Assembly: GCA_963756425.1 (NCBI GenBank)
Contig: CAVWNW010000003.1
Location: 117,642 to 181,641, forward strand
Source of the DNA: an uncultured bacterium
GTDB taxonomy: Bacteria > Actinomycetota > Acidimicrobiia > Acidimicrobiales > VFJN01
Direction of reading: 5' to 3'
Length of the DNA: 64,000 nt
Part shown: positions 20,565-60,360 of the stretch, in pieces
How the letters are laid out: each line of letters starts with the position of its first letter
Position numbering within the stretch: position 1 is the first letter of the stretch
Notes under the pieces: generated by a model
Seen by the model: only the letters and a program-made list of their open reading frames with translations
The model's database searches: none
Told to the model about the DNA's origin: nothing
Translations under genes and position numbers: made by a program

Positions 20565-20569
20565 GTCGT

Positions 20570-21670
20570 TCACCTCCGCTCGAGGATGTTCTGGAGCCGG
20601 GGGCCGTAGAAGCGCAGCGCGTTCTCACCGAGGATCTTGCGCTCGACGTCCTCGGCCAGCCCCCGCTCACGGACGTGCTTCACCGCGCCCGGGTACACGG
20701 CGTCGTGGTGCGGGTAGTCGGAGGCGAACATCACGTTGTCGGCCCAGCCCAGCCCGAGGGTCGCCTCCAGGCCGGGCTCCTCGATCTCGAAGGTGAGCCA
20801 CGACCGGCGGTTGATGGTCCCCTTGGGGTCGCCCCCGTGGAAGTCCTCGGGTGCGAGCTCGAAGTGCTCCTCGATGCGGTCCACCCACGTCGGCGCCCAG
20901 CCGCAGCCGGCCTCCAGGAAGCCGAGCCTGAGGCTGGGGAACCGCTCGAAGAGGCCCGCCAGCGTGGTGACGAGCATGCCGGTCATCTGCTCGAAGACGT
21001 GGCTGACGACGTGGCACCCGGCGTAGCTCGGCATGCGGTCGACCCCGACGGTGTCGAGGCCCGAGATGTACGCCTCGTGGAGCCCGACGGGGACATCGAG
21101 CCGCTGCGCCGCCTCCCAGAGCCGGTCGAAGTCCGGATGGTCGACCGTGCGGCCACCGACCTTGTTGGGGCGGATGACGCCGCCGACGAAGCCGTGCGCG
21201 TCGACGGCGCGTTCCAGCTCGGCGGCGGCCAGGCCGGGATCCTGTTGCGGCAGCAGCGCCACGCCGACGAGGCGATCGGGATCGGTGGAGCAGTAGCCGG
21301 CGAGCCAGTCGTTGTAGGCGGCGCACAGTGCGGCGGCGATGTCGGGGTTCTCGAGCAGCCCGAACATCATTCCCACGCTCGGGTAGAGCACGGCTGCGTC
21401 GATCCCCTCGTCCTCGAGCACCTGGAGCCGGACCCGGGGGTCGCGGCCACCCTCGCGGCGCTCCCCACCGGCCGAGACGTGGTTCTGCAGGCCGCCCGGG
21501 TACGGGTACTTCGACCGCCAGAGCCGCCCCTCGATCTCGTAGGTGACGTGGCCGCCGGCGACCGACACGAAGCGCATGGCGTGCGGCTGCATGGCCGCCG
21601 GGATGGCGTCGACGAGCTCGGCCAGGTTCTCCTCGACGTGCCCATCGGCATCGATGACCAGCGGCATCAT
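20570..21670 (-). CDS. Amidohydrolase-2 (PF04909/ACMSD-like) metal-dependent hydrolase/decarboxylase
   Basis: VIDADGHVEE at the N-terminus and FASDYPHHD near the C-terminus. Confidence 0.8.
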   Translation of the reverse strand: MMPLVIDADGHVEENLAELVDAIPAAMQPHAMRFVSVAGGHVTYEIEGRLWRSKYPYPGGLQNHVSAGGERREGGRDPRVRLQVLEDEGIDAAVLYPSVGMMFGLLENPDIAAALCAAYNDWLAGYCSTDPDRLVGVALLPQQDPGLAAAELERAVDAHGFVGGVIRPNKVGGRTVDHPDFDRLWEAAQRLDVPVGLHEAYISGLDTVGVDRMPSYAGCHVVSHVFEQMTGMLVTTLAGLFERFPSLRLGFLEAGCGWAPTWVDRIEEHFELAPEDFHGGDPKGTINRRSWLTFEIEEPGLEATLGLGWADNVMFASDYPHHDAVYPGAVKHVRERGLAEDVERKILGENALRFYGPRLQNILERR

Positions 21671-37491: not shown

Positions 37492-38655
37492 TCATCGCGC
37501 CCCGGCGACCAGCGCTCCCAGGGCGCCGAGGTGGTCCTCACGCGTGCCGAACGCGAGCGCCGCCGCCCGCGCCCGGTCCGACCACAGGTGGAGATCGTCG
37601 TCGAGGGTGAACCCGATGCCACCGTGGAGCTGGTGGGCCGTCAGCGTCGTCTCGACGTAGGCGTCGCCGGCGGCCACCTTGGCGATCGCCACTGCGGCCT
37701 CCGGACTCCCGGTGTCCACGGGCGCGTCGCTCCCCAAGGAGCACCGCCACACCGCCTTCCAGGCCGCCAGGCCCGCCGCATCGATGCGGGTCGACAGGTC
37801 GGCGATGTGGTGCTGCACGGCCTGGAAGCTGCCGATCGGGCGGCCGAACTGAACCCGATCGGTGACGTACCGAACCGTCCGGTCCAGCACCGCCCGGGCA
37901 CCACCGACCATCTCCACGCATTGCAGGGCGGTGGCGACGCGGCGCACCTCCTCCGTGATCGGCCAGCCATCCGTGGGCGCACCCGCCAGCACACCGTCCA
38001 CCGGCACCCGCACCGCGGTGAACGAGACCTCGTGTTGGGCGTCGTGGGCGAACGTCGTGAGCCGGGACCGGCGCACGCCCGGTGCCCCGCTGGGCACGAC
38101 GACCAGCCGGACGGCGCCGGCGCCCGCCCCGTCGGGATCCCTGGCCACGACCACCAGGTCGTCGGCGACGCCGGCGTTGGGGACGAACAGCTTCGTTCCG
38201 TCGACCACCACGACCTCGCCCTCGACAGTCGCGGTCGTGGCCAGGGCATCGGGCGACGACGCCATCCCCTCCTCGTGGTACGCCAGCGAGACGATGCGGT
38301 CGCCGGCGAGGACCGCGGGGAGCAGAGCGGCGCGCGGCGCGTCGCCCCCGGCGCGATCGACCAGCAGCGCCGCCTCGACGGTCGAGTAGAGGGTGGTCGG
38401 CACCAGGGCGCGGCCCGCCTCCTCGTACACCACCGCCAGGTCGAGCAGGTTTCCGCCGCCGCCGCCCACTGCCTCAGGGAACGCCAGGCCGACCCATCCC
38501 AGCTCGGTCATCCCCCGCCACAGGTCGGCATCGTGACCGTCGCCACCGGGCGCGCCGACACGCCGGACCAGTTCGGGCGGGCAGGCACGCTGCAGGAAGG
38601 CGCGCGCCGACGCCCGCAGCGCCTCCTGCTCGGCGGACAGCGCCAGGTCCGTCAT
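37492..38655 (-). CDS. Acyl-CoA dehydrogenase-family protein (second subunit of a pair)
   Basis: ACAD fold motifs (RVQFGRPIGSFQAVQHHIAD, HQLHGGIGF). ATG 38655 sits in an ATGA overlap with the upstream ACAD. Confidence 0.8.
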   Translation of the reverse strand: MTDLALSAEQEALRASARAFLQRACPPELVRRVGAPGGDGHDADLWRGMTELGWVGLAFPEAVGGGGGNLLDLAVVYEEAGRALVPTTLYSTVEAALLVDRAGGDAPRAALLPAVLAGDRIVSLAYHEEGMASSPDALATTATVEGEVVVVDGTKLFVPNAGVADDLVVVARDPDGAGAGAVRLVVVPSGAPGVRRSRLTTFAHDAQHEVSFTAVRVPVDGVLAGAPTDGWPITEEVRRVATALQCVEMVGGARAVLDRTVRYVTDRVQFGRPIGSFQAVQHHIADLSTRIDAAGLAAWKAVWRCSLGSDAPVDTGSPEAAVAIAKVAAGDAYVETTLTAHQLHGGIGFTLDDDLHLWSDRARAAALAFGTREDHLGALGALVAGAR

Positions 38656-39821
38656 CGCGGCAGACCGTGGCCCCGCTGGGCGACGATGTCGCGTTGGATC
38701 TCGTTCGTCCCGCCACCGAAGCGCAGGTAGGGCGCCGCCCGGTACATGAGCTGGGCGAGGCCGGCGATCGGCGCCCGGGCGTCGTGGGGGTCGAGCTGTC
38801 CTGCCGGCCCGAGCAGGTCCAGTGCCACGGACGAGGCCCGCGCGTGCAACTCGGTGGTGAAGACCTTCGTCATCGATGCCTCCGCGCTGGCGGGCCGGTC
38901 GGCGTCGATCAGCCACGCAGCACGGTGGTTCAGCAGCCTCGCCAGCTCGACGTCGACGGCCAGCTCCGCCAAGCGGCGCTGCACCTCCGGGCGGGACGCG
39001 GGCGCCCCGCCGTCGACCGTGGCGTCACGGCACCACGCGGTGAGGTCGTCGAGCAGCCGCCGCAGGCCGCCCGTGATCCCGATCGCTACCCGTTCGAAGT
39101 CGAGCGCCTGGGTCACGTAGGCCCAGCCGCGGTCGCGCTCGCCGACCAGGTTCTCGCAGGGCACGCGCACGTCGTCGAACCAGACCTGGTTGGTGCGCAT
39201 CCCCCGCCAGGTGGTGATGCCCCGGACCTCGATCCCCGGCGCGTCGAGCGGCACGATGAGGACGGAGATCCCCCGATGCCGGGGCGCGTCGGGGTCGGTG
39301 CGGCACGCCAGCCACTCGTGGGTGCAGTACTCGGCGCCGGTGTTCCAGATCTTGGTGCCGTTGATCACCCACACATCGCCGTCCAGCGCCGCCGTCGTCC
39401 GGAGGGATGCCAGGTCGCTGCCGGCGTCGGGCTCCGAGTAGCCGATGGCGAACTCGACCTCACCCCTGCGGATGGCCGGCAGCCACCGGGCGTGCTGCTC
39501 GGGCGTGCCCGAGCGGATGATCGTCGGCGCCACCGAGGCCGCCGTCATGTCGATGGCGGGCGCCCCGGCGTACGCCAGCTCGTCCATCAGCAGCAGGTTG
39601 TCGACAAGGGACCGGCCGGGGCCGCCGTGCTCCTCGGGCCACATGAGGCACAGCCAGCCCCGGTCGAGCAGGCGGCGGCGGAACTCCCTGATGACGTCGC
39701 CGCTCCACTCGCCTCCCCCGCGACGCACCGCCTCGCGCTCGGCCGGGCCGAAGTCCTCGTCGAGGAAGGCCCGCACCTCCGCGACCCACGCCCGCTGCCG
39801 GTCTGTGAGGCCGAAGTCCAT
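38652..39821 (-). CDS. Acyl-CoA dehydrogenase
   Basis: GYSEPDAGSD, INGTKIW and the C-terminal FGGGTNEIQRDIVA motifs. Confidence 0.85.
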   Translation of the reverse strand: MDFGLTDRQRAWVAEVRAFLDEDFGPAEREAVRRGGGEWSGDVIREFRRRLLDRGWLCLMWPEEHGGPGRSLVDNLLLMDELAYAGAPAIDMTAASVAPTIIRSGTPEQHARWLPAIRRGEVEFAIGYSEPDAGSDLASLRTTAALDGDVWVINGTKIWNTGAEYCTHEWLACRTDPDAPRHRGISVLIVPLDAPGIEVRGITTWRGMRTNQVWFDDVRVPCENLVGERDRGWAYVTQALDFERVAIGITGGLRRLLDDLTAWCRDATVDGGAPASRPEVQRRLAELAVDVELARLLNHRAAWLIDADRPASAEASMTKVFTTELHARASSVALDLLGPAGQLDPHDARAPIAGLAQLMYRAAPYLRFGGGTNEIQRDIVAQRGHGLPR

Positions 39822-39828
39822 GGTCGGC

Positions 39829-40311
39829 TCAGCCGTGGTCGCGGTCGCCGGCCGGGGTGAACCGGAACAGCAGGTGGCTGTAGCGGGCGACCGGCGTGCC
39901 GTCGCCCAGGCGGTACGTGGCCGCGGTTGTGAGGAAGTGCCCCTCGCCCAGGCGGGTGCGCTTCAGCTCCGAGACGTCGACCAGCTCCTCCTCGACGTTG
40001 AGCCGGTCACCGACCCGGATCGGCCGGAAGAACTCCGCGTCGCAGCCGACGCTCACGACTGTCGTGCCGGGCAACGGCACCTGGCCGGCGAGGAGCGGGC
40101 GTGGCCGCGGGTTGCCGGGCCGCCAGTCGGGCGCCATCGCCCAGGTCATCAGCAGCGCCGGGGGCGAGACGACGGCGCCCCACTGGTCGCGGGCGAACTC
40201 CTCGTCCCAGTAGCTGGCGTTGCCGTCGTGGACCATGGCACAGAAGTACTTGATCAGCGGCCACGCCACGTCGTGGGTGGCGAACTCGACCTCGGTGCGG
40301 GTGCCGATCAT
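39829..40311 (-). CDS. Hotdog-fold protein, MaoC-dehydratase N-terminal type (HadA/HadC-like), copy B. True start probably lost to a frame shift upstream.
   Basis: Paralog of 40861..41397 (roughly half the residues identical by eye). A conserved N-terminal block (SGFDLPIGTYEEARAM) is encoded in frame upstream of ATG 40311 with no start codon. ATG 40400 lies in another frame. Confidence 0.7.
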   Translation of the reverse strand: MIGTRTEVEFATHDVAWPLIKYFCAMVHDGNASYWDEEFARDQWGAVVSPPALLMTWAMAPDWRPGNPRPRPLLAGQVPLPGTTVVSVGCDAEFFRPIRVGDRLNVEEELVDVSELKRTRLGEGHFLTTAATYRLGDGTPVARYSHLLFRFTPAGDRDHG

Positions 40312-40396
40312 CGCCCGGGCTTCCTCGTAGGTCCCGATGGGCAGGTCGAACCCCGATTCGCCCTCGACCGCCCGCCCGCGCCCGCGCGCGTCGCGG

Positions 40397-40864
40397 TCAT
40401 GAGCGCAGCTCCCGGACGGGCAGCTCCAGGGTGACGGTCGCGGGGCAACACAGCTCGCCGTCCTGGTTCTTGACCGTCAGCTCGAGGTCGACCAGGTGGC
40501 GGACCCGCGCGCCGGCCTCGTCGGTGTACCTGCGCACGACCCGCCCTTCGCCCACCATCGTGTCGCCGGCGTAGATCGACCGCTGCATCGAGATCTTCCG
40601 CCGGGCGATGAAGCTCTGCGGGCCGCCCCACTCGGTCGCCAACCGATCCACGAAGCCGAGGAAGTGCATCGTGTTGACGTAGATGGTCGGCTGGCCCTGC
40701 GACCGGGCGTACTCGGGATCGTGGTGGCCGGGGAAGTAGTCCCAGGTGGTGGCCGGGTTCATGATGACGCGGCGGTAGGTGATCTCGTCGTCCACACGCG
40801 GCAGGGCGGAGCCCTCCTCCACGTCGTCCCAGTAGCGCTGCTCGTACGAGACTCCCGGGATCAT
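40397..40864 (-). CDS. MaoC-like (R)-hydratase/dehydratase catalytic hotdog subunit (HadB-like)
   Basis: Hydratase-2-like motif WDYFPGHHDPEYA (Asp and His retained). ATGA overlaps at both ends. Confidence 0.8.
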   Translation of the reverse strand: MIPGVSYEQRYWDDVEEGSALPRVDDEITYRRVIMNPATTWDYFPGHHDPEYARSQGQPTIYVNTMHFLGFVDRLATEWGGPQSFIARRKISMQRSIYAGDTMVGEGRVVRRYTDEAGARVRHLVDLELTVKNQDGELCCPATVTLELPVRELRS

Positions 40865-41397
40865 GCGTCGTCCTCCGAAGAAGAGAAGCGGAACAGCACG
40901 TTGGTCGTCCGGGCGACGAGCTCACCGTCCTGGCGCCGGTACGTCGACACCGTGGTGACGAAGTGGCCGGTGCCCAGGCTCGTGCGCTTGGCCTCCGAGA
41001 CGTCGACCAGCTCCTCCACCACGTTCAGGTGGTCGCCGACCCGGATCGGGATGAAGTGCTCGGCGTCGTTGGAGACGTTGATGAAGGTGTCGCCGGGGAG
41101 CGGCACCCGGGCGGTGAGCAACGGAACCGGCCGTCCACCACCCGGCTTCCACTCGAGCGGGATGAGCCAGGTCATCAGCATGCCCGGCGGGGCCACCACG
41201 CCGCCCCACTGCCGCTCGGCGAAGTCGTCGTCCCAGTAGGCGGCGTTCGCGTCCCGGACCATGGCGGCGTAGTGCCGGACCATCGGCACGGTGACGGCGA
41301 TCTCGCCGAAGCGCACGGGCGTGGTCGTGCCCACCATCGCCTTCGCATCCTCGTAGGTCCCGACGGGGACGTCGTAGCCCGTGTCCTCGGTGCCCAT
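40861..41397 (-). CDS. Hotdog-fold protein, MaoC-dehydratase N-terminal type (HadA/HadC-like), copy A
   Basis: 178-aa ORF. Paralog of copy B. Its stop overlaps the start of the catalytic subunit. Confidence 0.8.
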   Translation of the reverse strand: MGTEDTGYDVPVGTYEDAKAMVGTTTPVRFGEIAVTVPMVRHYAAMVRDANAAYWDDDFAERQWGGVVAPPGMLMTWLIPLEWKPGGGRPVPLLTARVPLPGDTFINVSNDAEHFIPIRVGDHLNVVEELVDVSEAKRTSLGTGHFVTTVSTYRRQDGELVARTTNVLFRFSSSEDDA

Positions 41398-41403
41398 GCG
41401 CCC

Positions 41404-41895
41404 TCAGCGGTCGCGCACGCCGTCGCCGCGGACCAGCTTGCGGTGGTCCCACGACACGACCTTCTCGATCTCGATCCGCACCCCCAGGCGCTTCGCCATC
41501 CGGTCCCGCACCAGGGCGCGGCCGGCATCGTCGAGCGGGCCCTGGTAGCGCTCGGTCACGCTGTACGCCAGCTCGAGCTTGCGGTCCTCGTCGTCGACCG
41601 TCTCCGCCCGGCCGAGCAGCTGGACGCCGCGCAGCTCCTCGTAGACGTCACCGTCCTCGACCAGGCAGGTCACCTCGGGATCGCGGACCAGGTTCTTGTA
41701 CTTCTGGGAGCCGCGGTAGGTGAGGAAGCCCGGCGCGCCGGCGACGAACCCGTACCACATGGCGACCACGTGCGGCCGGCCGCTCGGCCCCGCCGTCGCC
41801 AGGGCCATGGTGTGGCGGCCCCGCAGGAACCGGTCGACCTCGTCAGGCCCCATGGCGATGGATGCCCGCTGCGTGCGGCGCGCCTCAGACGACAT
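41404..41895 (-). CDS. Pyridoxamine 5'-phosphate oxidase-family protein (probable F420-dependent class)
   Basis: The MALATAGPSGRPHVVAMWY split-barrel signature. Confidence 0.6.
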   Translation of the reverse strand: MSSEARRTQRASIAMGPDEVDRFLRGRHTMALATAGPSGRPHVVAMWYGFVAGAPGFLTYRGSQKYKNLVRDPEVTCLVEDGDVYEELRGVQLLGRAETVDDEDRKLELAYSVTERYQGPLDDAGRALVRDRMAKRLGVRIEIEKVVSWDHRKLVRGDGVRDR

Positions 41896-43009
41896 CGCCG
41901 TCGAGCCCGTACAGGCGTGCCGCGTTGGTCCCGAGGATGCGGACGAGCACGTCGTCGCCCAGCGCCGCGGCGTTGGCCCGCGCGGTCTCGACCGTGCCCG
42001 GGTAGTCGCAGTCCCAGTGGGGATAGTCCGACGAGAACACCAGGCTGTCGGCGCCGAGGTGCTCGACGTAGGGCTCGAGCAGCCGGTCCTCGCACTCGAA
42101 GGCGAAGAAGCACTGACCCCGCTCGATGTAGTCGCGGGGGTCGCTGGTCATCGCCGGGACCAGGTCGCCCCGCTTCTCGCGGTGCTCGTGCATCCGGTGC
42201 ACGAAGTAGGGAACCCAGCCGACGCCGGACTCCAGGAACGCCACCCGCAGCGCCGGGAAGCGGTCGAGCACGCCGCCCATCGCCAGCGCCGTGAACGCCA
42301 CCATCTGGTCGACGGGGAACGACAGGGTGTGCACCTGCGCGTAGTTGTCGAACCGCTCGGCCCCGGGCAGCGGCAGGTTCATCCCCGGCGCGCTGTGGAC
42401 TCCCACGGCGACGCCCAGGCCAGCGGCCGCCTCGAAGAAGGGCTGGAGCGCAGGGTCGTCGAGGTTCCGCGTGCCCACCACGGGTGGGATCATCACGGCC
42501 ACCATGCCGAGGTCGGCAGCCCTGCCCAGCTCGGCGACCGCGTTGTCCGGGTGCTGGAGGGGAACGATCGCGACCGCCCGCAGCCGGTCGGGATGGCGGG
42601 CACAGACCCCCGCCAACCAGTCGTTGTAGGCGCGGCAGAAGTCGAGGGCGAACGTCTGGTCCTCGAACGTCGTGGCCCCGATGCTCAGGCCGCCGTACAG
42701 GACCTGGACGTCGATGCCCTCCTTGTCGAGGTCGCGGATGCGGGCATCGAGATGGAGGGCCCCGTCGGCCGCCAGTGGATGCATCGCCGACTCGATCGGA
42801 ACGCCGCGGCCCGGTCCCTCCTGGGTCGGGAACAGCTTGCCCTCGATCAGGCTGACGGTCCTGCCCCCGGACTGTCCGGCCTGCTGCCAGCCCGGATGCC
42901 GCTCGGCCAGCGCCCGCCAGGGCGCCAGCTCGTCGTCCGGCGCGTCGAGGCGGACGACCGGCTCGTTGATGTGGGCGTCGGCGTCGATGACCAGCATCCG
43001 TGCGTCCAT
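41885..43009 (-). CDS. Amidohydrolase-2 (PF04909) metal-dependent hydrolase
   Basis: VIDADAHINEP at the N-terminus and FSSDYPHWD near the C-terminus. Paralogous in type to 20570..21670. Confidence 0.8.
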   Translation of the reverse strand: MDARMLVIDADAHINEPVVRLDAPDDELAPWRALAERHPGWQQAGQSGGRTVSLIEGKLFPTQEGPGRGVPIESAMHPLAADGALHLDARIRDLDKEGIDVQVLYGGLSIGATTFEDQTFALDFCRAYNDWLAGVCARHPDRLRAVAIVPLQHPDNAVAELGRAADLGMVAVMIPPVVGTRNLDDPALQPFFEAAAGLGVAVGVHSAPGMNLPLPGAERFDNYAQVHTLSFPVDQMVAFTALAMGGVLDRFPALRVAFLESGVGWVPYFVHRMHEHREKRGDLVPAMTSDPRDYIERGQCFFAFECEDRLLEPYVEHLGADSLVFSSDYPHWDCDYPGTVETARANAAALGDDVLVRILGTNAARLYGLDGDVV

Positions 43010-43058: not shown

Positions 43059-44348
43059 GCGGCGTGTGGGTCAGTGTTAGCCCAGATCGACGATGCTGCG
43101 CGGCTGGCCGAGGTCGAGGAGTCCCGAGAAGGTGACCTGGGGTGTCACGACCAGGGCAACCGCATCGTTTCGCCGAGGAGCGGCCGACCGTCGCCGACCG
43201 GTCTGCTGCGGCCCGCACCGGGCGCGGCCCGGCCGAAGTCGGGCAACGCGGCCAAGGGGGCAGAGCCGCTGGCCGACCGCCAGTGGGACATGCGGATGAT
43301 GGACACCGACGCGGCCCACCGCCGGGCGACCGGCAAGGGTGTCACCGTGGGGATCATCGACACGGGCATCGATGCCGCCCATCCCGACCTCGCACCGCAC
43401 TTCGATGCCCGGCTGTCACGCAACTTCACGATGGACATTCCCTCGATCGACGGGGCTTGCGAGGTGCCGACGTGCATCGACCCGGCCAATGTCGATGAGG
43501 GTGGTCACGGCTCGCATGTTGCCGGCATCGTCGGTGCGGCCCGCAACGGGATCGGCACGGAGGGTGTTGCCCCCGATGCCACCCTCGTCAATGTCCGGGC
43601 CGGCCAGGACTCGGGCTTTTTCTTCCTCTTCGAGACGGTGGCGGCACTCACTTACGCCGGTGACGCGGGCCTCGATGTGGTCAACATGAGCTTCTTCACC
43701 GACCCGTGGCTCTACAACTGTGACTCGCTCGACGACTACGTCTCCGGGCCGGTCACGCCGGAGCAGGTGGCCGAGCAGGCCTTCGTCAGGCAGACGGTCA
43801 CGGCTGGGCTCGAGTACGCCCATGATCACGGGGTGACGTTGGTGGCGGCGCTGGGTAACAGCCACGCCGACTACTCGACGCCGACCCGCTTCGACAACAT
43901 CAGCCCCGACTTCCCGCTCGGCACCGAGGTAGAGCGCACCGTGACCAACGACTGCCTCGACCTACCCACCGAGGGCCCGCACGTGATCAGCGTGTCCGCG
44001 GTCGGACCGTCGACCACCAAGGCCGACTACTCCAACTACGGGCTCGGCATCCCTGAGGTCTCGGCGCCCGGAGGCTGGTTCCGTGACTTCGTCGGCACCC
44101 CGCGGTTCTCGACGCCGACCAACCTGGTTTTGGCGCCCTACCCGCTGCACGTGGCCCAGACCGATGACCCACCGCTCGCTGACGAGAACGGCAACCCCGT
44201 CGACGATTTCTCGGTGGTGTCGTGCGATCGACGAGGCAACAACTGCGGCTTCTACACCTACTGTTCGTCGCGGGCGACCGCAGTCCGCTGCACCACACGC
44301 CGCCCGCATGGCCTGGCGCGACGGGCCCCGAGCGCGGAGACTCCCGAG
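43050..44348 (+). pseudogene. Subtilisin-like S8 serine peptidase remnant (no signal peptide, catalytic Ser block lost)
   Basis: Asp block GIIDTGID and His block HGSHVAG are present, with homology about 43263-44261 ending at ..NNCGFYTY. The expected GTSMAAPH block is absent in frame. A degraded ..QSAAPHAA.. appears in the +1 frame at 44284-44304. Confidence 0.6.
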
Positions 44349-45629
44349 GTGGCACTGGGGCATCACCATCATCACCACCATCACTACGACTCCGACGACT
44401 TGCCGCGCCGGGAGCTGGACGCACCGACGGTGCGTCGCTTCCTGGGCGGCGTCGTCGCCGTCCTGGTCGTCGCGGCGCTGGTGGGAATCGCGGTCTGGTG
44501 GCCGCATGGCGACCCGGCGGTCGACCGGGAGGCCCTCGGCTACGGCGACCGAGTCGATGCCACCGTGACAGCAGCCGAGATTGGCCCATGTAGCTACGAC
44601 CCCGAGACCGAGTGCAACAGCGTCAGCGCCCGCATATCCAGCGGGCCGGACCCCGGCACGTCCGCCACATTGGAGGCCGACATCGCCACTCGGACCGCGG
44701 TGGCGGAGCTGACGGTGGGAGACGACATCGTGCTCAACGACGCCGGCCCCGACGTCGACCCCGCAGCCCGCTACTCGTTCGCCGATGTTCAACGCCGGCT
44801 GCCACTCGTCATCCTCGCTGTCGTGTTCGCGGTGGCGGTGGTGGCGTTGGGGCGGTTGCGAGGCCTGCTGGCGCTGGCGGGCATCGGCATCACCGTGGCC
44901 GTACTCCTCGTGTTCGTGTTCCCGGCGCTGTTGCGGGGCTCCTCGCCGCTCGGGGTGGCGCTCACCGGCGGCATCGTCATCGCCGTCAGCGCCATCTATC
45001 TCGCCCACGGCGTCAGCGACCGCACCACAGTGGCCCTCGTGGGCACGATCGCCAGCCTGCTGTTGACCGCCGCCCTGGGTGCTGGTTTCGGGGCCGCCGC
45101 CCACCTCAGCGGCCTGGCCAGCGACGAGTCCGTCAACCTGTTGGCGTTCGCGCCGGAGCTCGACTTCCGTGGCCTGCTGCTCGCCGCCACCATCATCGGC
45201 GCGCTCGGCGTCCTCGACGACGTGACCATCACCCAGGTATCAGCCGTCTGGGAGCTTCACGCCAGCGATCCGCGGATCGGCGCCCGCGGGCTGTACTCGG
45301 CCGGCATCCGCATCGGTCGGGACCACATCGCATCGACCGTCAACACTCTGGTGCTCGCCTACACCGCGGCCGCACTGCCGACGCTGCTGCTGTTCACTCA
45401 GTCCGGCCTGGCCATCGGCGAGGTCCTCACCACCGAAACCCTGGCCGTCGAGATCGTCCAGACGCTGGTCGGATCCATCGGCCTGGTGGCCTCAGTACCG
45501 CTCACGACAGCCCTGGCCGCCTGGGTCGTCACCCTGTCGGGTCGTGACGAACAGCCCGATCGCTTCGACTGGCCAACTCGTCAGCCGACCGCCGAACGTC
45601 CCCAGGACATGTTCTGGGGACCGCGATGA
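44349..45629 (+). CDS. YibE/F-family integral membrane protein with N-terminal His8 tract
   Basis: GTG 44349 (GGAG 11 nt upstream), then ALGHHHHHHHHYDSDD, a TM helix and WWPHG. The YibE/F core follows (GVLDDVTITQVSAVWEL, IGRDHIASTVNTLVLAYTAAALP). Confidence 0.7.
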   Translation: MALGHHHHHHHHYDSDDLPRRELDAPTVRRFLGGVVAVLVVAALVGIAVWWPHGDPAVDREALGYGDRVDATVTAAEIGPCSYDPETECNSVSARISSGPDPGTSATLEADIATRTAVAELTVGDDIVLNDAGPDVDPAARYSFADVQRRLPLVILAVVFAVAVVALGRLRGLLALAGIGITVAVLLVFVFPALLRGSSPLGVALTGGIVIAVSAIYLAHGVSDRTTVALVGTIASLLLTAALGAGFGAAAHLSGLASDESVNLLAFAPELDFRGLLLAATIIGALGVLDDVTITQVSAVWELHASDPRIGARGLYSAGIRIGRDHIASTVNTLVLAYTAAALPTLLLFTQSGLAIGEVLTTETLAVEIVQTLVGSIGLVASVPLTTALAAWVVTLSGRDEQPDRFDWPTRQPTAERPQDMFWGPR

Positions 45630-49497: not shown

Positions 49498-50199
49498 ATG
49501 CTGTTCCTCCACGAGGTGCACCGGGTCGCGGGCGCCAAGGAGAGGGAGTTCGAGGCCGCCTTCCGGGCAGGGTGGATGGAGGCCCTGGCCGCCGACGGGG
49601 ACGCCAGGCTGCTGTGGTTCCTGCACCACGCCCACGGCACCGGCCCCTCCTACCAGGTGGTGACGGTCACCGCCCTGGCCGACGGAGCCGCGTGGGAGCG
49701 CCTGGCGGCACGGGTCCAGCACGGCGACCTGCGTGAGTGGGCCCGCCAGGTCGACTCCTGCCGGCACGACATCCAAGCCCGCTTGCTGATGGCCCTCGAC
49801 TTCTCGCCCCTCGACGTCGACCTCGCCGCGGTGCCCACCGACGGGCGCCGCCACGACCCCGCCCTGTACATGGAGGACACGATGTGGCCCAAGCGGGGGA
49901 AGGCCGAGGAGTACGTCGCCGCCGCCGGCGCCGTGTACACGAAGATGCTCGGATCGGACCCTGCCCACCGACTCATCAGCATCGAGGCCGCCTACCAGAC
50001 CATGCCGGGCGCCGGCCGCTACCCCGAGGTCACGCTGATGCAGAAGGTGCACGACATGTCCGGGCTCGTCCGGCTTCTGACCACGGACATGCCCGAGGCG
50101 ATGGCGCGCCCGGGCAACTGGATGCACGACGCCCTGGAGTTCCGCGACCAGTGGCGGAGCAAGCTGCTGCGCACGGCGTCGTGGTCGCCGCTCAACTGA
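49498..50199 (+). CDS. Hypothetical two-domain alpha+beta protein (possibly NIPSNAP/Dabb-like), paralog 1
   Basis: 233-aa ORF beginning MLFLHEVHRVAG..FE.AFR.GW with a GGAAGGAG RBS. The family call is tentative. Confidence 0.6.
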   Translation: MLFLHEVHRVAGAKEREFEAAFRAGWMEALAADGDARLLWFLHHAHGTGPSYQVVTVTALADGAAWERLAARVQHGDLREWARQVDSCRHDIQARLLMALDFSPLDVDLAAVPTDGRRHDPALYMEDTMWPKRGKAEEYVAAAGAVYTKMLGSDPAHRLISIEAAYQTMPGAGRYPEVTLMQKVHDMSGLVRLLTTDMPEAMARPGNWMHDALEFRDQWRSKLLRTASWSPLN

Positions 50200-50222
50200 T
50201 CGCCGGGAGGGACGGGTTGGCC

Positions 50223-50930
50223 ATGCTCTTCATGCACGAGGTGCACTCGGTTGCCGGCGAGCACGAGCACGAGTTCGAGGACGCCTACCGCGACGGCTGG
50301 ATGAAGCTGCTGGCGCAGGACGATGACGCCCGGCTGCTGTGGTACCTCAACCAGGCCCACGGGAGCGGCGCGTCGTACCGGGTGGTGACGATCACCGCGA
50401 TCCGCAACGGCGCCGCCTACGAGCGCCTGGCCGAGCGGCTGCGGCGGGGCGACCTCCTCGACTGGTCGCGCGCTGTCGGCGCCCTGCGCCACGAGGTCCA
50501 GGGCAAGATGCTGCTGCCGGTCTATTGGTCGCCGATCCAGGAGATCGACCTGGCGACGGTGCCGGCCGACGGCTCCGAGCACGAGCTGTCGCTGTACATG
50601 GAGGACACGGGCTGGCCGTCGGCGCCGCTCGACGACTACATCCGGTTCTGGGACGAGGAGTACTTCCGCCACATGCGCGCCATGCCGCCCGAGCACAGCA
50701 TCCTGGAGATCGAGGCCTGCTTCCAGGTGGCCCACGGCACCCACTACCGGCCGGAGGCCATGCTCATGCAGAAGGTGCTCAACTACGGGCTGCTCCTGAA
50801 CCTGATCTCCGAGCCCGAGGACTACGACCCCGACGTGTGGCCGGGCCGGTACATGCACGGCGGCCTGCGCTACCGCGACCAGTGGGAGAGCCGGCTGCTC
50901 CGCACCAGCACGTGGTCACCGCGCTACTGA
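50223..50930 (+). CDS. Hypothetical two-domain alpha+beta protein, paralog 2
   Basis: 235-aa ORF beginning MLFMHEVHSVAG.., roughly half identical to paralog 1 by eye. GGGAGGGA RBS. Confidence 0.6.
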   Translation: MLFMHEVHSVAGEHEHEFEDAYRDGWMKLLAQDDDARLLWYLNQAHGSGASYRVVTITAIRNGAAYERLAERLRRGDLLDWSRAVGALRHEVQGKMLLPVYWSPIQEIDLATVPADGSEHELSLYMEDTGWPSAPLDDYIRFWDEEYFRHMRAMPPEHSILEIEACFQVAHGTHYRPEAMLMQKVLNYGLLLNLISEPEDYDPDVWPGRYMHGGLRYRDQWESRLLRTSTWSPRY

Positions 50931-54338: not shown

Positions 54339-55388
54339 TCACGCGCCCCCGAGATAGGAGTCGTCGAGCAGCGTCGCCAGTGTCTCCATGGGCGCGCGGG
54401 TCCAGTTCTCGTCGACCTCCTGGCCTTCGTCCCACGCGGCCCGCACGGCCCGGTCCCACGTGAGGACGCGCGCGATCTTGGCGACGCGGCACGCGACGTC
54501 GAGCGTCGCCAGCAGGTCCTCGCGCGGGGCGACGGCGCTGAAGACGTCGAGGTAGGCGTCCCGGGCGTCGGCGAACCGGGGATCGTCAAGGTCCGCGCCC
54601 AGGATGCGTTGGACGAAACCCAGGGGAACGAGCATGGCGGCGAAGGGGTGGGCCACGACGCTGTCGCCCCAGTCGTAGAACCTCACGTCGCCGGCACCGT
54701 CGCCGAGGATGTTCCACGGATGGAGGTCGTTGTGGTCGAGGCTGGCTGGCAGGGAGGACGCCGCCAGCCGCTCGCACCACGAGGCGATCGTCTCGCCCAT
54801 GGCCGCCACCCGCAGGTGGGTCGCACGATCGGCCGCCCGGCCGTCGAGGTCGTCGCGGGTGGCGTCGAGCGCCTGCTCGAATCGCTCGCCCATCATGTGC
54901 GGCCGCATGTCCGCCACCCCCAGGGACAGCAGGCCGTCCACGTGCGGGGCGAGGTCCAGCTGCATCCGGCCGTACTCCGCCAGGGCCGCCGCCAGCGACT
55001 CCACCAGGTCGATGCCGGTCAGGCGCTCACCGAGGGGCTGGCCACCGTCGGGCAGCACCATCCAGCCGCGCGCCGTGTCGGTGGCGATGGGGGTCAGGAC
55101 CCGATCGGGCACCGTCGCCGCCAGCAGGTCGTACAGGCCGGCCTCGAACGCCGTCCCCGGCCCCGCCGCCTTCATCCACACCAGCCCGGCGTTCGTCCGC
55201 ACCTTCAGGACCGTTGCCCACGGCTCCACGTGCGGCTGCTCCACGTCCCCGCGCCGCTCGATCCCCGCGCCGGCGAGCCGCTCGTCGAGCCACGACACGG
55301 CGTGGGCACGCCACTCCGGGCTCGACCACACCGCCGTGCCGTGGCCGGAAAGTGCGCTCACGGGGCTAAGGACGCAGCCGTGCGGCAC
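54339..55388 (-). CDS. Phosphotransferase-family (APH/choline-kinase fold) protein
   Basis: Catalytic loop LDHNDLHPWNIL and the DWGD metal-binding motif. Confidence 0.75.
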   Translation of the reverse strand: MPHGCVLSPVSALSGHGTAVWSSPEWRAHAVSWLDERLAGAGIERRGDVEQPHVEPWATVLKVRTNAGLVWMKAAGPGTAFEAGLYDLLAATVPDRVLTPIATDTARGWMVLPDGGQPLGERLTGIDLVESLAAALAEYGRMQLDLAPHVDGLLSLGVADMRPHMMGERFEQALDATRDDLDGRAADRATHLRVAAMGETIASWCERLAASSLPASLDHNDLHPWNILGDGAGDVRFYDWGDSVVAHPFAAMLVPLGFVQRILGADLDDPRFADARDAYLDVFSAVAPREDLLATLDVACRVAKIARVLTWDRAVRAAWDEGQEVDENWTRAPMETLATLLDDSYLGGA

Positions 55389-55416: not shown

Positions 55417-56157
55417 TCACATCAACTGGAACCCGCCGTCGACAGTGAGGACCTCGCCGGTCATGTAGGTGGACCGGGCCAGGAACAGGGCGGAGTCCGC
55501 CACCTCGTCGGCGCTCGCAACCCGCCGCAGCGGGACACGGGCGGCCGGGCCCGAGAGGTCCCCCACCTGCGACCGGAACGCGGGCGTGTCGGTGAAGCCG
55601 GGCGACAAGGCGTTGACCCGGACGCCCCTGTCCGCCCACTCCAGGGCGAGCGTCCGCGTGAGGGCGACGACCCCGGCCCGCGCCGCCCCCGAATGCGCCA
55701 TGCCGGGAAAGGGCCTTTGCCACACGCTGGCGACGACGTTCACGATGGCACCACCGACGCGGGCCAGGAGGGGGTACAGCTGGCGGCACACGAAGAAGGT
55801 GCCGGTGAGGTTCGTGTCGACGACCGCCCGCCACGCGTTGGGTGTCAGCCGCTCCGCCGGCGCATGAAACTGGCCCCCGGCCGCGTTCACCAGCACGTCG
55901 ACCCGGCGCGACCAGCCGTCGATCGCCTCCCGCAGCTCGCCGAGCCGGTCCCAGTCGCGGATGTCGGCGGGGAACGCGTGCGCCACGCCGCCGGCCTCAC
56001 CGATCCGTCCGGCGACGTCGGCGAGCGGCTCCGGCCGCCGGCCTACGAGCACGACGATGTTCCCGGCCGCGGCCAGGCGCGCGGCACACGCGGCCCCGAT
56101 GCCCGATCCGCCGCCCGTGACGACGGCGGTCGGCGAGCCGTCCGGGACGTCCGTCAC
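55417..56157 (-). CDS. SDR of the PECR/DECR subgroup (trans-2-enoyl-CoA / dienoyl-CoA reductase-like)
   Basis: VVTGGGSGIG, then NAAGGQF...NLTGTFF...GMAHSGAARAGVVALTRTLALEW. The HSGAAR variant replacing YxxxK is as I recall it from peroxisomal trans-2-enoyl-CoA reductase. Confidence 0.75.
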   Translation of the reverse strand: MTDVPDGSPTAVVTGGGSGIGAACAARLAAAGNIVVLVGRRPEPLADVAGRIGEAGGVAHAFPADIRDWDRLGELREAIDGWSRRVDVLVNAAGGQFHAPAERLTPNAWRAVVDTNLTGTFFVCRQLYPLLARVGGAIVNVVASVWQRPFPGMAHSGAARAGVVALTRTLALEWADRGVRVNALSPGFTDTPAFRSQVGDLSGPAARVPLRRVASADEVADSALFLARSTYMTGEVLTVDGGFQLM

Positions 56158-57863
56158 GCGACCGGGGCCGCGATCAGCTCCGCGTGCTCCTCGCGCAGGA
56201 ACTGCGCCCATTCGTCGTCGTCCCTCGCGAGGTGCCGCGCCGCCAGCGACCGAAGGTCCTCGAGCCGGACCTTCTGGCTCCCCGTATAGGTCAGCTCCTC
56301 GTCCTCGAAGAACAGGACCCGCCGGGGAACCTTGTACGACGCCAGAACCCCGCGCAGGTGGCCGGTGATGTCGTCGGCCGACACCGGGTCGAGGCTGCGG
56401 ACGGCGCACAGCACGACCGCCTCCCCGAACCGCGGGTGCGGCACTCCCACGACGCTCCCCAGCTTCAGCCGGCCCCAGTTCGCCACTGCGGCCTCGACCT
56501 CGGCCGGGGACACGTTGGCGCCGGATGTCTTGATCAGTCCGGAGAGACGCCCGTGCCAGTGGAGGTAGCCCGCCTCGTCGAGGTGACCGGAGTCCTTGGT
56601 CCGGAACCAGCCGTCGTCGTCGAAGCAGTCCTCGGGGGCGACCTTGTAGTAGCCGCGCATCAGGGTCACGCCCCTCACGGCGATCTCCCCCGTCTCCCCC
56701 ACCCCCAGCGGCTCGCCACTGTCGGGGTCGACGATGCGGATCGCCATGCCCGGCAACGTCACGCCGTGCGTGGTCTCTCGCAGCTCGAGCGGCGAGTTCG
56801 AGGGAATGGAGGTGCAGATGGTGAACGTCTCGGTCAGGCCGTACGCGGCCCGCGGGTCTCCCGGATCGCCCTCGATCCGGGCCAGACGCCGCAGCGCGCT
56901 GTCCTGCGCCACCCGCCGCAGCGACGACAGGTCCCGCTTGTGGGCGTCCTCGTGCTCCACCAGGGCGGCGGCCGAGTGGGGGAACGTGTGGACCGTGGTG
57001 ATCCGCTCCCGCTCGAGCAGCTCGAGCGCCTCGCCGGCGTCGAACGCTTCCTGGCACACGAAGCACGCACCGGACGCCAGCGTCCCGCCCAGCACGAACG
57101 CCAGCCCGGCGGTCCAGAAGAACGGGAACGGGCTCCAGACCCGATCGGATGGATCGAGCCCGAGCTGCTCCCGCCAGCGCCAGCTCTGCACGACCGGGCC
57201 CCTCTGGCGGTGCAGCACCGCCTTGGGGTGGGCGGTGGTGCCGGACGTGTAGATGATCAGCGCGTCGTCGCTCGGCACGACGCTGGCGGCCGCGGCGTCG
57301 AGCACTGCGTCGTCCACCGACGCGCCCGCACCGACCACGTCCCCCCAGCCCTCGACGCTGCGGTGCTCGGTAACGGGGCCGACGCACACGATGCGACGCA
57401 GGTGGGGGAAGCGGGCGACCGCGATGCGCCCGGGCTCGGCGTCGCCGATGCCCGGATGGTCGGCGACCAGCTCGTCGACGAATCGCCGGTCGACGAGCGA
57501 CGCCTGGGTGACGAGCACCGAGGCGTCGCAGTGCCCGAGGATGTAGTCGCGCTCCTCGGCGGCGGCGAGGGTGCTCACGGGCACGGCGACCGCGCCCACG
57601 AGGGTGGCGCCATAGGCGGCCACCACGAACTCGGGGCGGTTGGCGAGCATCACGGCGACCTTCGAACCCTTCGTGACACCCAGGGCGAGCAGGCCCTTCC
57701 CGAAGGCCCGCACCTCCGCATGCAGCTGCTCGTAGGTGAGCCGTCGGTCGCCGAAGACCAGAGCCTCGTTGCCTGGATAGCGCTCGGCCACCTGGGCGAT
57801 GAACCGGCCGTGCGTGAGGTCGTCGGCGGCCACCGGCAGGCCGAGATACCCCCCGCCCATCAT
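56154..57863 (-). CDS. AMP-dependent acyl-CoA synthetase/ligase
   Basis: [21 protein letters not shown] and the [28 protein letters not shown] motifs. ATGA overlap with the CCR stop. Confidence 0.85.
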
Positions 57864-59113
57864 TTCCTCCCCAGGCCCGGCTCGGGGGCGCCGACCAGCG
57901 CCACCCGGTTGCCGAACACGTCGACGCCCCGCTCCATCTCGTCGTGCGCGTCGGGTATCTCCTCGAAGCGGTACAGCTTGCCGAGGCAGGGGTCGACGAT
58001 CCCGCCCACCACCAGGTCGTTGTAGGCGCGGGCCTGCTCGTCGTTGGTCCCGTGCGATCCCTGCAGCCGCTTCTGCCGGACCCAGTGGTAGCGGAGGTCG
58101 ACGACTGCGCTGTAGCCGGTCGTCCCGGCGCAGACCACGACCATGCCACCGGCCTCGCAGACGAAGATGCTCGTCGGGATCGTCGCCTCCCCGGGATGCT
58201 CGAAGACGATGGTGGGGTTCCTGCGCTCGCCCAGCGCCTCCCAGACCTTGGCCCCGAACGCCCGGGCACCGCCGGTCCACTCCTTCTGGCCGTCGGCGTC
58301 CTCCCAGTGCGGTGCCATGCCCCAGTGCGAGAACTCCCGGCGGTTGACGTAGCCAACGGCGCCGAGCTTCTTGCAGTACTCGCCCCGCTCGTCGCCGGAC
58401 ACGACGGCCACCGGTCGCGCGCCTGCGGCCGCCGCCAACTGGATGGCCTGGGTGCCGAGGCCCCCTGACCCACCCCACACCAGCACCGGGTCGCCGTCCC
58501 GGAGGGTGTTCGGCGGCCAGCCGTGGAGCATCCGGTACGCGGTGGTGCCGACGAGCGTCGCCGCCGCGGCCTCCTCCCACGAGAGCTGGGGCGCCTTGGG
58601 CAGGCACTGGTGTGCCTGGGCGACCGTGAACTGTCCGAACGACCCGAAGTTGGTCTCGTAGCCCCAGATCCGCGCCGACGGCGCCAGCATGGGGTCTTTC
58701 CCGGCGGCGACCCAGGGGTCGTCGGCATCCCACCAGCCGTGGTGGATGACCACCTCGTCGCCGACGCCGATGTCACGTACCGCCTCGCCGACGGCGTAGA
58801 CGATGCCGGATGCGTCCGAGCCCCCGATGTGGAAGTCCCAGGGCTCGCCCGCCTTCTGGCGGACGCGGATGACGTCGATCGGCAGGCCCCGCGCCGCCCA
58901 CACGTTGTTGAAGTTGATGCCCGCAGCCATCACCGCCACCAGGACTTGGTCGGGGGCCAGCCGCGGGACGTCGACCGCCTCGACCCGGAACGCGGTCTGC
59001 GGGTCGCCGAAGCGGTCCTGGCGGATGACCTGGGCCCACATCCGCTTCGGCACCTCGCCGACGGGCGGCAGCTCACCGATCGACAGTGATTCGGTCCCTG
59101 GCATTGCGGTCAC
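57860..59113 (-). CDS. ccr: Crotonyl-CoA carboxylase/reductase (CCR) family enoyl-thioester reductase
   Basis: [32 protein letters not shown] and RLQGSHGTN blocks characteristic of CCRs. GTG 59113 overlaps the upstream stop (alternative start ATG 59104). Confidence 0.8.
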
Positions 59114-60264
59114 TCGTTGGGCAGCGAGATCTCCGCGGTGCCCTTGGCCATGACGGCGTCGCGCTGGTTCGTCATCGTGTACTCGACGAAGGCGAGGTGC
59201 TGCCCGGTGCCCGGGTCGATGTCCTTGCCTGTGACGGTGCCGTTGAGGAACGTCGCGTCGCCGGTGAACGCGGGGTTGCGGTACTGGGCGTTCGAGTGGA
59301 CGATCTCACCCCACTCACCGGACCAGTTGGTGAGGTAGTCGAGGATCCAGGCGCCCATCGTGGCGCCGTAGCCATAGCCACGGGGCATGCCGATGAGCCG
59401 CGCGTAGCGGGGCTGGACGTGGCCGCGGGACGGGCCCTGGTACAGGCCGTCGGCCCTGGTCGGATCGATGGCAGCCTTGTGCGGGTCTCGACTCATCTCG
59501 GGCAACCAGCCGGCCGCGTCGGTGGTCGACACGCCCCAGTAGTCGGCGGCGCCCCAGATGTTCATGTTGAAGGCGCGCCACTCGGTGGTGAAGCTCATCA
59601 GCGTGTGCGGCCCGATGGGGCGCGTCGGCAGGCGATCGCCCTCGTTCACGTCCTTCCACAGCAGCTTGTCGTGGCCGCGGAACGTGCCGTAGTAGGCGAA
59701 CTTCTGCTCCTCGATGTCCGCCAGGGCGTCGTCGCTCCACTCGGGGTCGTCCTTCTCGCTGAACTGGGCGCGCCGGCGCGCCTCGTCGGCGAGGTAACGG
59801 ATCGATGTCGACCGCTGCTTGGCGATCATCTCGCCGCGCTGATTGATGTACGTCGTGTCGCCCCGGGAGAACATGGTGGGGCCGGCGAACTTCGTCTCGG
59901 TGACCCGGTAGTCGAACAGCATCCGCTCGCCCTTGATGTTGTCGCCCGGCTCGATGCGGGGGCCGAAGAACCACCATTCGTCGCCACCGAAGATCATGTG
60001 CGAACCCGGGATCGTCCCCTGGATGGCCGGCGTGGCACCGTGCCCGACGTCGGTGGCCACGGCGAACGACTGCGGCGCCACGATGCGCCCGAAGCGCCCC
60101 TCGGCGGCGAAGCGGTCGTCGTAGTAGAGGCGGTTGGGGTTCTGCATGCCCTGCACCCAGCGCCGGACGTCGTTGACGTGCACCGGGTCCTTGAGGTACC
60201 CGCCGCCGAGCGGGACGCCCACCCAGCGGTCGACGTCGGACGTGTCGAGCGTTACGTCACCCAT
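59110..60264 (-). CDS. Double-hotdog MaoC-like acyl dehydratase/hydratase (N-terminal FAS1-DH-like half plus MaoC half)
   Basis: 384-aa ORF. The N-half carries RIVAPQSF...GGDEWWFF and the C-half carries [12 protein letters not shown]...FTGD....G.V. AGGAGGGG RBS. Confidence 0.7.
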
Positions 60265-60345
60265 GCGAGGGCCCCTCCTGGCGGTTCTCGGTGCGGTGGC
60301 TCGGCGATCCCGGGGAGTTTCGCCTTAGGTGTATAAGAATAGAAG

Positions 60346-60360
60346 TCTACATCAGACAGG
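60346..60360. promoter_or_regulatory. AT-rich box TCTACATCAGACAGG (reverse complement CCTGTCTGATGTAGA) upstream of the CCR cassette
   Basis: Part of the AT-rich patch 60329-60360 in the divergent region. It shares TCTGATGTA with 49433-49441. Confidence 0.35.

Follow-up and report, generated by a model that had tools for sequence, protein, structure and literature searches.

Organization of the operon

The 64,000-nt stretch of contig CAVWNW010000003.1 analysed here (assembly GCA_963756425.1, positions 117,642 to 181,641; hereafter the window) comes from an uncultured member of the Acidimicrobiales and harbors, at 55417-60264 on the minus strand, four co-directional genes with 0-5 nt between neighbours. 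In order, these encode a MaoC-family, (R)-hydratase/dehydratase-like protein with a double-hotdog fold (384 aa, 59110-60264), a crotonyl-CoA or enoyl-CoA carboxylase/reductase (CCR/ECR; 417 or 414 aa, 57860-59113) of a clade marked by the motif GSHG, an AMP-forming acyl-CoA ligase (569 or 568 aa, 56154-57863) and a short-chain dehydrogenase/reductase (SDR; 246 aa, 55417-56157) of the PECR/DECR type, i.e., resembling enoyl- and dienoyl-thioester reductases. The G+C content of the window is ~71% throughout, GC at third codon positions (GC3) is 0.93-0.95 in all four open reading frames (ORFs), and their codon-position GC is strongly coding. We consider this a real operon of four, possibly five, genes (the candidate fifth is described below) in a high-GC soil Acidimicrobiales-type genome.

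These four ORFs had been reported in an earlier, sequence-only reading of the window, together with characteristic motifs and the junction strings GTGA, ATGA and GTGA at the three gene boundaries, all of which are present. The same reading took the strings for three 4-nt overlaps. This agrees with the SDR, whose start (GTGA) matches that in relatives, but two other starts possibly lie further downstream. The CCR could begin at GTG 59113 (417 aa, GTGA overlap) or at ATG 59104 (414 aa, 5-nt gap), the start taken by gene callers in 97%-identical relatives, and the ligase at ATG 57863 (569 aa, ATGA) or at ATG 57860 (568 aa, 1-nt overlap), the latter being better spaced from a GGAGG at 57868-57872. 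Under either choice of starts the packing appears tight enough for co-transcription and translational coupling. Longer ORFs across the operon are of a different nature: a 1119-aa ORF at 55417-58776 (minus strand, other frame) is an out-of-frame shadow of the real genes, several further ORFs of more than 500 aa overlap them in other frames as is typical of high-GC shadows, and every ORF above ~1000 aa in the window cassette proved to be such a shadow in the wrong frame.

The carboxylase/reductase and its GSHG clade

The second protein has the Pfam domains ADH_N and ADH_zinc_N and, with 520.7 bits where the cutoff is 378.55, belongs by NCBIfam (TIGR01751) to the CCR/ECR enzymes. Its best solved matches are a dimeric ECR of Mesorhizobium metallidurans (9KVA, E 1.5e-188), AntE (2.8e-141) and the CCRs of Methylobacterium extorquens (8e-115) and Streptomyces collinus (2.7e-75), followed by the Kitasatospora setae ECR, CinF and the reductase domain of propionyl-CoA synthase (Pcs; 6EQO, E 1e-33). 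The CO2 pocket of ECRs consists of N81, F170, E171 and H365 in K. setae numbering, and an F170Y variant is kinetically like the wild type (Stoffel et al., PMC6628652). When aligned with 4GI2 and 3HZZ, the window CCR retains equivalents of all four (Asn81, Tyr170, Glu171 and His365) within the segments NFNNVW, WGYE and GSH, and Tyr at position 170 is also found in the genuine M. extorquens CCR (4GI2). The possibility raised in the sequence-only reading, that this homologue might lack the carboxylation residues and group with ordinary reductases, can thus be dismissed.

The residue that follows the catalytic histidine is the point of difference. It is Phe in the S. collinus and M. extorquens CCRs (GSHF, the bulky residue that closes the acyl pocket in crotonyl-specific enzymes) and Gly in the window CCR (GSHG). 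Gly occupies this position in 120/120 clade members (close homologues), and canonical Glu/Phe relatives, found at 11 loci and 62-67% identical to the window CCR, all have Phe. The clade is well conserved and its metagenomic members, which number in the thousands, come from Chloroflexota, Acidimicrobiia and Rhizobiales; of these, the ones at 74-78% identity in Anaerolineae and Dehalococcoidia are all CCR-named by their sources, and it has one recent crystal structure, 9KVA. The latter is the closest solved structure (~408 residues alignable) and has GSHG in common with the window CCR, but carries Asn at the Glu171 position (WGYN) where the window CCR has Glu (WGYE); the accompanying preprint names its Gly350 against Phe366 of K. 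setae in the active site (bioRxiv 10.1101/2025.10.17.683039). An exact-sequence look-up found no match to the window CCR, or to the MaoC-like protein, and near-identical relatives were used instead.

Two acyl-pocket positions may be compared in this way. They are Ile/Gly in the window CCR and Val/Val in AntE (4Y0K), where the position after His is Val in 4Y0K and Ala in 4Y1B, the sole visible difference between these two entries. CinF (4A0S) is reported to have Ala163/Gly362 at the same two positions (Quade et al. 2012). The numbering offset of 4 residues that is implied by PMC6628652 is consistent with these CinF positions. Given that Gly replaces Phe, the acyl pocket seems to be opened on one side, which suggests a substrate larger than crotonyl-CoA. 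Residue 171 is variable in the clade (N in 86, E in 18 and D in 16 of 120 GSHG homologues, with Q in some loci), unlike in GSHF relatives, where it is always Glu, a variation that suggests an altered CO2/water site across the GSHG clade.

A very conserved double-hotdog family

The MaoC-like protein has a sole Pfam match, to FAS1_DH_region (MaoC N-terminal type; E 2e-23, residues 14-149), and neither NCBIfam nor a sequence search of the PDB gave a match. An AlphaFold2 (AF2) model built from a 39-sequence alignment that included distant representatives (pLDDT 94, against 48 with a shallow 15-sequence alignment) folds as a double hotdog, as in the MaoC/hydratase-2 family, with a largely helical region of ~100 residues between the two hotdog sheets. 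Foldseek matches of this model to the PDB have 10-17% identity and TM scores of 0.5-0.6; 5I7N, 4V12 (MSMEG_6754 dehydratase), 4E3E and 8HGN (mesaconyl-CoA hydratase) are among the best, and further ones are the fungal fatty acid synthase (FAS) DH domain, itaconyl-CoA hydratase and the hydratase 2 of MFE-2. Apart from those to the FAS DH region, the top matches are to MaoC-type dehydratases/hydratases or uncharacterised hotdog proteins, so that a hydratase chemistry would be in keeping with the modelled fold. Mycobacterial HadAB-type and MSMEG_6754-type dehydratases share not only the fold but also the succession of a non-catalytic-type and a catalytic-type hotdog, and 29/39 members of the MaoC-like family match the NCBIfam model fused_HadA_HadB weakly. 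The window protein nevertheless stands apart from them by its low identity, its degenerate hydratase-2 motif, its inter-sheet region and the family's almost constant pairing with a ligase.

Of the hydratase-2 motif (G-D-x-N-P-[LIV]-H), the Asp is replaced by Asn42 and the His by Tyr47. Some relatives do have the His, distant ones have the Asp but not the His, and the C-terminal domain contains no hydratase-2 motif, with only His282 conserved (38/39 sequences). The family is nonetheless unusually well conserved, with proteins from Acidimicrobiales, Myxococcota and other groups still 67-72% identical, and it is large, counting 3666 or more homologues at E <= 1e-5. Database searches brought up none that is named or solved, and a cluster-member look-up for the distant representatives returned unnamed metagenomic proteins only. 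Three fragmentary metagenomic proteins (P0265, P0184 and P0182) look like fusions of AMP-binding or acyl-CoA dehydrogenase (ACAD) domains to the N-terminal part of the MaoC-like protein; these are either true fusions or miscalls and are not used as evidence.

As the canonical Asp and His are replaced, the reaction of the MaoC-like protein may differ from a simple (de)hydration. One could envisage another hotdog reaction, e.g., isomerisation, hydrolysis of a thioester or β-elimination of a leaving group such as an amine, after which the ECR and the SDR would reduce the resulting enoyl-CoA. The extreme conservation of the other residues would fit such a scheme, as would two features of related loci described below, i.e., caprolactamase-alpha-like genes directly upstream of the MaoC-like gene and substrate-binding proteins of the peptide/opine type. 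Set against this, distant family members still score with HadA/HadB dehydratase models, the best fold matches are all hydratases or dehydratases and nothing points directly to another chemistry, which makes this scheme, in our view, improbable.

Ligase and short-chain reductase

The ligase (Pfam AMP-binding, 7.9e-76, and AMP-binding_C) is of a generic AMP-forming acyl-CoA type. It reaches no NCBIfam cutoff, scoring highest with models for fatty-acid, FadD3 and CasG-type ligases, and the solved structures nearest to it are those of FadD13 and feruloyl-CoA synthetase.

The SDR (Pfam adh_short and adh_short_C2) has as best PDB matches 6LLN, a citronellol-catabolism dehydrogenase from Pseudomonas, PECR (1YXM), 3IMF, DECR2 and DECR1. 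In place of YxxxK it carries HSGAARAGV, which human PECR (1YXM) has in identical and 6LLN in similar form (GHSGAARSG), and this segment, with TGGGSGIG, conforms to the PECR/DECR motif (TGxxxGxG and SGAAR(A/S)G). The earlier suggestion of a PECR/DECR-like enzyme rather than a ketoreductase is therefore upheld. The window SDR departs from PECR and DECR in its length (~246 aa), in having no targeting signals, in being the operon partner of an ECR and in missing the NCBIfam equivalog cutoffs, both that for 2,4-dienoyl-CoA reductase (NF005811/PRK07677, 163.4 vs 318 bits) and that of PRK07576 (188.9 vs 321). By these comparisons it is a relative of PECR/DECR, not a named equivalog; a literature search returned nothing useful on the function of AtuB-type SDRs. 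The likeness to PECR and 6LLN also prompted the idea of an isoprenoid acid (phytenoyl- or citronellyl-type) as substrate, which found no supporting genes in the operon and is retained as an idea only. Taken together, the Pfam, NCBIfam, PDB and AF2/Foldseek comparisons corroborate the family assignments that had been made for all four proteins from the letters alone.

Conservation of the gene neighbourhood

Two sets of 80 loci were compared, one centred on the MaoC-like gene in species-representative genomes (tblastn with the four window proteins) and one on the CCR in a metagenome scan. MaoC-side loci are termed distant when the MaoC-like protein is below 90% identity (n = 73, against n = 7 close loci), and neighbours were counted from a conservation-ranked choice of ORFs and direct tblastn, avoiding the antisense shadow ORFs of high-GC DNA. 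The four-gene order is kept, at 83-97% identity, in more than 13 independent contigs from MAGs (metagenome-assembled genomes) and metagenomes, in its entirety in L001-L003, L005-L008 and L088-L090, and L093 retains the CCR-ligase-SDR part. Given that it is kept in the contigs of multiple relatives, this order is not due to chance. A ligase (45-57% identity) also lies directly downstream of the MaoC-like gene, on the same strand, in 53 of the 63 distant loci that have at least 1.9 kb of downstream sequence, and these distant pairs span Myxococcota, Spirochaetes, Gammaproteobacteria and Acidimicrobiales. The CCR, present in 6/7 close loci, is found in just 1/73 distant ones (L012, a MAG labelled Micromonosporaceae). 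The sequence-only reading had treated the four genes as one cassette; their order does persist within one actinobacterial lineage but not beyond it, and only the MaoC-like gene and the ligase are conserved widely.

Even within this lineage the composition varies. L009, with a MaoC-like protein at 92% identity, has MaoC-ligase-SDR without the CCR, and L094 has MaoC, a substrate-binding protein (SBP) and a permease followed further on by CCR-ligase, without the SDR. CCR, ligase and MaoC-like genes remain grouped in L012 and L094, where identity has dropped to 57-73%, and SBP, permease and ATPase genes of an ABC importer are inserted between MaoC and CCR in L010-L012, L091, L092 and L094, the binding protein in L010, L011 and L012 being of family 5. 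From the CCR side, a ligase adjoins the CCR in only seven of the 80 loci (L088-L094, at least 83% identity), four of which have the SDR and five the MaoC-like gene, either adjacent or ~5.6 kb upstream, and none of the 73 loci with CCR relatives at 62-79% identity has ligase, MaoC or SDR. Other GSHG-type CCRs lie instead beside genes for IclR, a binding protein, an enolase-superfamily dehydratase, HIBADH-like and aldehyde dehydrogenases, ADP-forming acyl-CoA synthetase, ACADs and acetone-carboxylase-like proteins. By these counts the cassette is composite: an old and widespread MaoC-like and ligase core, which a GSHG-type ECR joined in one actinobacterial lineage, with an ABC importer in some members and the PECR-type SDR in a narrower sub-lineage. 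A literature search found no paper on this gene combination.

The distant pairs keep other company, frequently ACADs, CaiB-type CoA-transferases, amidohydrolase_2, SCPx-type thiolase with DUF35, enoyl-CoA hydratases (ECHs), P450 and medium-chain dehydrogenase/reductase (MDR) dehydrogenases, and all 23 SDRs found near them are of the classical YxxxK type, the PECR-like type being restricted to the close lineage. PECR and DECR, the relatives of the window SDR, are auxiliary β-oxidation enzymes. Such neighbours would suit a β-oxidation type of operon, in which the MaoC-like protein hydrates within an (R)-specific cycle for bulky or branched acyl-CoA, in the style of peroxisomal MFE-2, while the SDR and the ECR, the latter mainly a plain reductase, are auxiliaries for the removal of dienoyl intermediates and of enoyl intermediates blocked in other ways. 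A loosened selection on the CO2 site, at which the variation of residue 171 in the ECR clade (N/E/D/Q) hints, would be in line with this scheme. On the other hand, the window ECR itself keeps the four CO2-pocket residues, the operon of this lineage has no classical dehydrogenase-type SDR, and a hydratase and two reductases would have to compete for one enoyl-CoA. We regard this explanation as unlikely but serious, owing to the non-canonical MaoC motif, the redundant and variable reductases, the want of a gene for the fate of an alkylmalonyl-CoA and the putative nature of the functions given to the MaoC-like family and the GSHG clade.

In ~10-14 distant loci (e.g., L021, L053, L059, L077 and, at 485-2695, L062), hosted by Myxococcota and related MAGs, genes of the hydantoinase A/B family that resemble the alpha subunit of caprolactamase lie directly upstream of the MaoC-like gene (NCBIfam CapA, 648 bits, below the cutoff of 1000). 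Their position hints at an ATP-dependent ring-opening or carboxylation step that may feed the module.

Two CCR-side loci, L156 (6857-10473) and L157 (2-3737), carry a GSHF-type ccr, ~66% identical to the window CCR, followed by a 148-aa PhaJ-type MaoC hydratase and an MM_CoA_mutase, and are by gene content textbook clusters of the ethylmalonyl-CoA (EMC) pathway. As in the window, a CCR lies beside a MaoC-family hydratase, and the M. extorquens enzyme of this pathway (4GI2) shares the CO2-pocket residues of the window CCR including Tyr170. The operon might accordingly be thought to belong to an EMC pathway, its CCR being an ordinary one, the MaoC-like protein an (R)-specific crotonase and the ligase a route of entry for 3-hydroxybutyrate or acetoacetate (e.g., from poly-3-hydroxybutyrate, PHB), with the remaining genes elsewhere in the genome. 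The TIGR01751 score above the equivalog cutoff would agree with this, as would the report that some Acidimicrobiales genomes encode the EMC pathway (PMC4337565). Several observations are at odds with it: the canonical relatives all have Phe after His where the window clade has Gly; the MaoC-like protein is a divergent double hotdog of 384 aa and not of the 148-aa PhaJ type; the operon adds a ligase and an SDR that has no ketoreductase Tyr/Lys; and the CCR is dispensable in L009. Moreover, no mutase, mcd, mch or mcl is present in the window, and apart from the mutases of L156/L157 no mutase homologue was found in any fetched locus, so that none stands beside a GSHG-type CCR. An EMC function is thus distinctly unlikely.

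Extender-unit supply deserves the same scrutiny, given that the window CCR, like AntE and CinF, is a canonical ECR with an apparently enlarged acyl pocket and that AntE is its second-best solved match after 9KVA. The ligase and the CCR would in this case produce an unusual alkylmalonyl-CoA for a polyketide or secondary pathway outside the window. The sequence-only reading had noticed no polyketide synthase (PKS) or EMC partner gene in the window, and a Pfam scan of 44 window proteins (of ~57 predicted ORFs) likewise revealed no PKS, B12 mutase or HpcH-type lyase, while the window as a whole contains neither a ketosynthase (KS) motif nor a mutase homologue (tblastn with an ecm-type query). A KS motif was also missing from every fetched locus, and among the loci examined neither an ethylmalonyl-CoA mutase nor a PKS ever occurs beside a GSHG-clade CCR. 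Instead, clade members are spread widely over Chloroflexota and other MAGs, where they lie in primary-metabolic contexts of several kinds, and the ABC importer genes inside the sister operons favour assimilation. The choice between assimilation and extender supply, which the sequence-only reading had left undecided, can therefore be narrowed, as the latter now looks very improbable.

Upstream element, candidate fifth gene and surroundings

Upstream of the operon, a 39-nt AT-rich element (CTGTCTGATGTAGACTTCTATTCTTATACACCTAAGGCG, 60321-60359, minus strand) is nearly invariant in an alignment of the window with L001 and L005-L011, while its flanks diverge, and the Shine-Dalgarno-like sequence AGGAGGGG (60272-60279, minus strand), 7 nt before the ATG of the MaoC-like gene (60264), is invariant in relatives. 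The element holds the short palindromes GTCT..AGAC and CTTA..TAAG, does not fit the sigma-70 consensus in a scan and has no regulator gene adjacent; consensus searches for promoters and terminators, like an Rfam scan of 53-62 kb, detected no usable element. From its conservation it is probably the promoter/operator of the operon, and the presence of both element and Shine-Dalgarno in L009, which has no CCR, fits a single promoter/operator for the whole set.

A possible fifth gene (54339-55388, minus strand, 349 aa) follows the SDR gene in the same direction after 28 nt and encodes an APH-family, kinase-like protein (Pfam APH, E 1e-7) with no NCBIfam match and no meaningful PDB match. It is called at the same position in L001-L003, and L010 has a matching ORF after the SDR; no such gene follows the ligase in L094. 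In the lva pathway and in ACAD10/11, kinases of the APH type have 4-hydroxyacyl-CoAs as substrates, and the protein could belong to the pathway encoded by the operon. A specifically lva-like role, i.e., a 4-hydroxyacyl-CoA kinase, was considered but found no support, as the protein has no NCBIfam or PDB match and the SDR is without the ketoreductase residues.

The other genes flanking the operon are functionally unrelated (SHOCT/PLDc_N, GNAT, glyoxalase, AKR and VWA-CoxE). Further away, the window is rich in genes of CoA-dependent catabolism; its Pfam content includes five more AMP-ligases, ACADs, ECHs, SDRs, an RPE65 oxygenase and a copper amine oxidase. A second, split hotdog set at 37492-43009 (minus strand) comprises two ACADs, three FAS1_DH_region/MaoC_dehydratase proteins (160, 155 and 178 aa), a PNPOx-like protein and an amidohydrolase_2, and resembles the ChsE/ChsH-type clusters of steroid or branched-chain side-chain degradation. 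At 12230-18993 (minus strand), a fused double family-III CoA-transferase (CaiB, 734 aa), two AMP-ligases and a KshA-like Rieske oxygenase stand in a row, with SDR, class II aldolase and amidohydrolase_2 genes further along that strand (19000-21670). The plus strand encodes an unusual 779-aa fusion in which a subtilase (Peptidase_S8) forms the N-terminal and a YibE/F membrane domain the C-terminal part (43290-45629) and two adjacent genes of 233 and 259 aa without Pfam match (49498-50930), which are also neighbours in L001-L003.

A possible assimilatory route

Given that sister operons contain importer genes, that the surroundings are catabolic and that PKS and EMC partners are absent, we tentatively favour an assimilatory route, to which we would give a little less than an even chance. 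In such a route the ligase would convert an imported organic acid to its CoA thioester and the MaoC-like enzyme, running in the dehydrating direction, would turn an (R)-3-hydroxyacyl-CoA into a 2-enoyl-CoA. The ECR would then reduce the latter with NADPH and carboxylate it at C2, yielding in vivo an alkylmalonyl-CoA whose side chain, if the opened pocket (Gly for Phe) is a guide, would be larger than that derived from crotonyl-CoA. The SDR may serve for non-carboxylating reduction of the same enoyl thioester or of a dienoyl thioester. The overall role would be assimilatory and not the supply of polyketide extender units. That a hotdog hydratase should feed a CCR has a natural precedent in the ccr-MaoC-mutase clusters of L156/L157.

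The sequence-only reading had also pointed to Pcs, known from Chloroflexus and Erythrobacter, and this likeness stands, as the CCR is homologous to the Pcs reductase domain and the operon follows the same logic of ligase, dehydratase and ECR-type MDR reductase. Pcs is, however, a single fused protein (1850 residues in 6EQO) that encloses a reaction chamber, and the operon encodes separate ones; the Pcs dehydratase is a crotonase and that of the operon a double hotdog; Pcs reduces without net carboxylation while the window reductase keeps the full CO2 pocket; and the PECR-like SDR is an addition. The operon is thus not a Pcs, although a Pcs-like mode of working is possible by analogy.

A number of points weigh against the assimilatory route. 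The MaoC-like family and the GSHG clade of ECRs have putative functions, predicted from sequence and fold, the former with a degenerate hydratase-2 motif that may signal a different reaction, and the preprint on 9KVA gives no physiological substrate, kinetics or gene context (bioRxiv 10.1101/2025.10.17.683039). Two enoyl reductases in one operon look redundant, and neither is essential to the module, given that L009 does without the CCR and L094 without the SDR. None of the genes that would carry an alkylmalonyl-CoA onward (mutase, epimerase or decarboxylase) is present in the operon. In most other lineages the MaoC-ligase pair is accompanied by classical SDRs, thiolase/DUF35 and ACADs, which corresponds to the hydration (β-oxidation) direction. 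Finally, family-5 SBPs usually bind peptides, opines or nickel and not simple acids.

The enzyme families of the operon are all known and nothing here shows new chemistry; should none follow, what remains is an unexceptional operon of CoA-dependent catabolism. No known CO2-fixing enzymes are faster than ECRs, whose roles, to our knowledge, have hitherto been placed either in the ethylmalonyl-CoA pathway or in the supply of polyketide extender units. The operon ties the GSHG clade to functionally interpretable partners, as few other loci do, and it offers concrete proteins, along with the binding protein of the sister contigs, for finding a substrate. The comparison has also exposed a very conserved two-gene module, double-hotdog protein and ligase, that is widespread in uncultured Myxococcota and other MAGs. 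It is conceivable, if on balance doubtful, that the uptake-linked operon represents an undescribed CO2-fixing route for the assimilation of a hydroxy or unsaturated organic acid larger than C4, independent of both the EMC pathway and polyketide synthesis. Should this be true, it would provide the first physiological role for the GSHG clade of ECRs and for the MaoC-like/ligase module.

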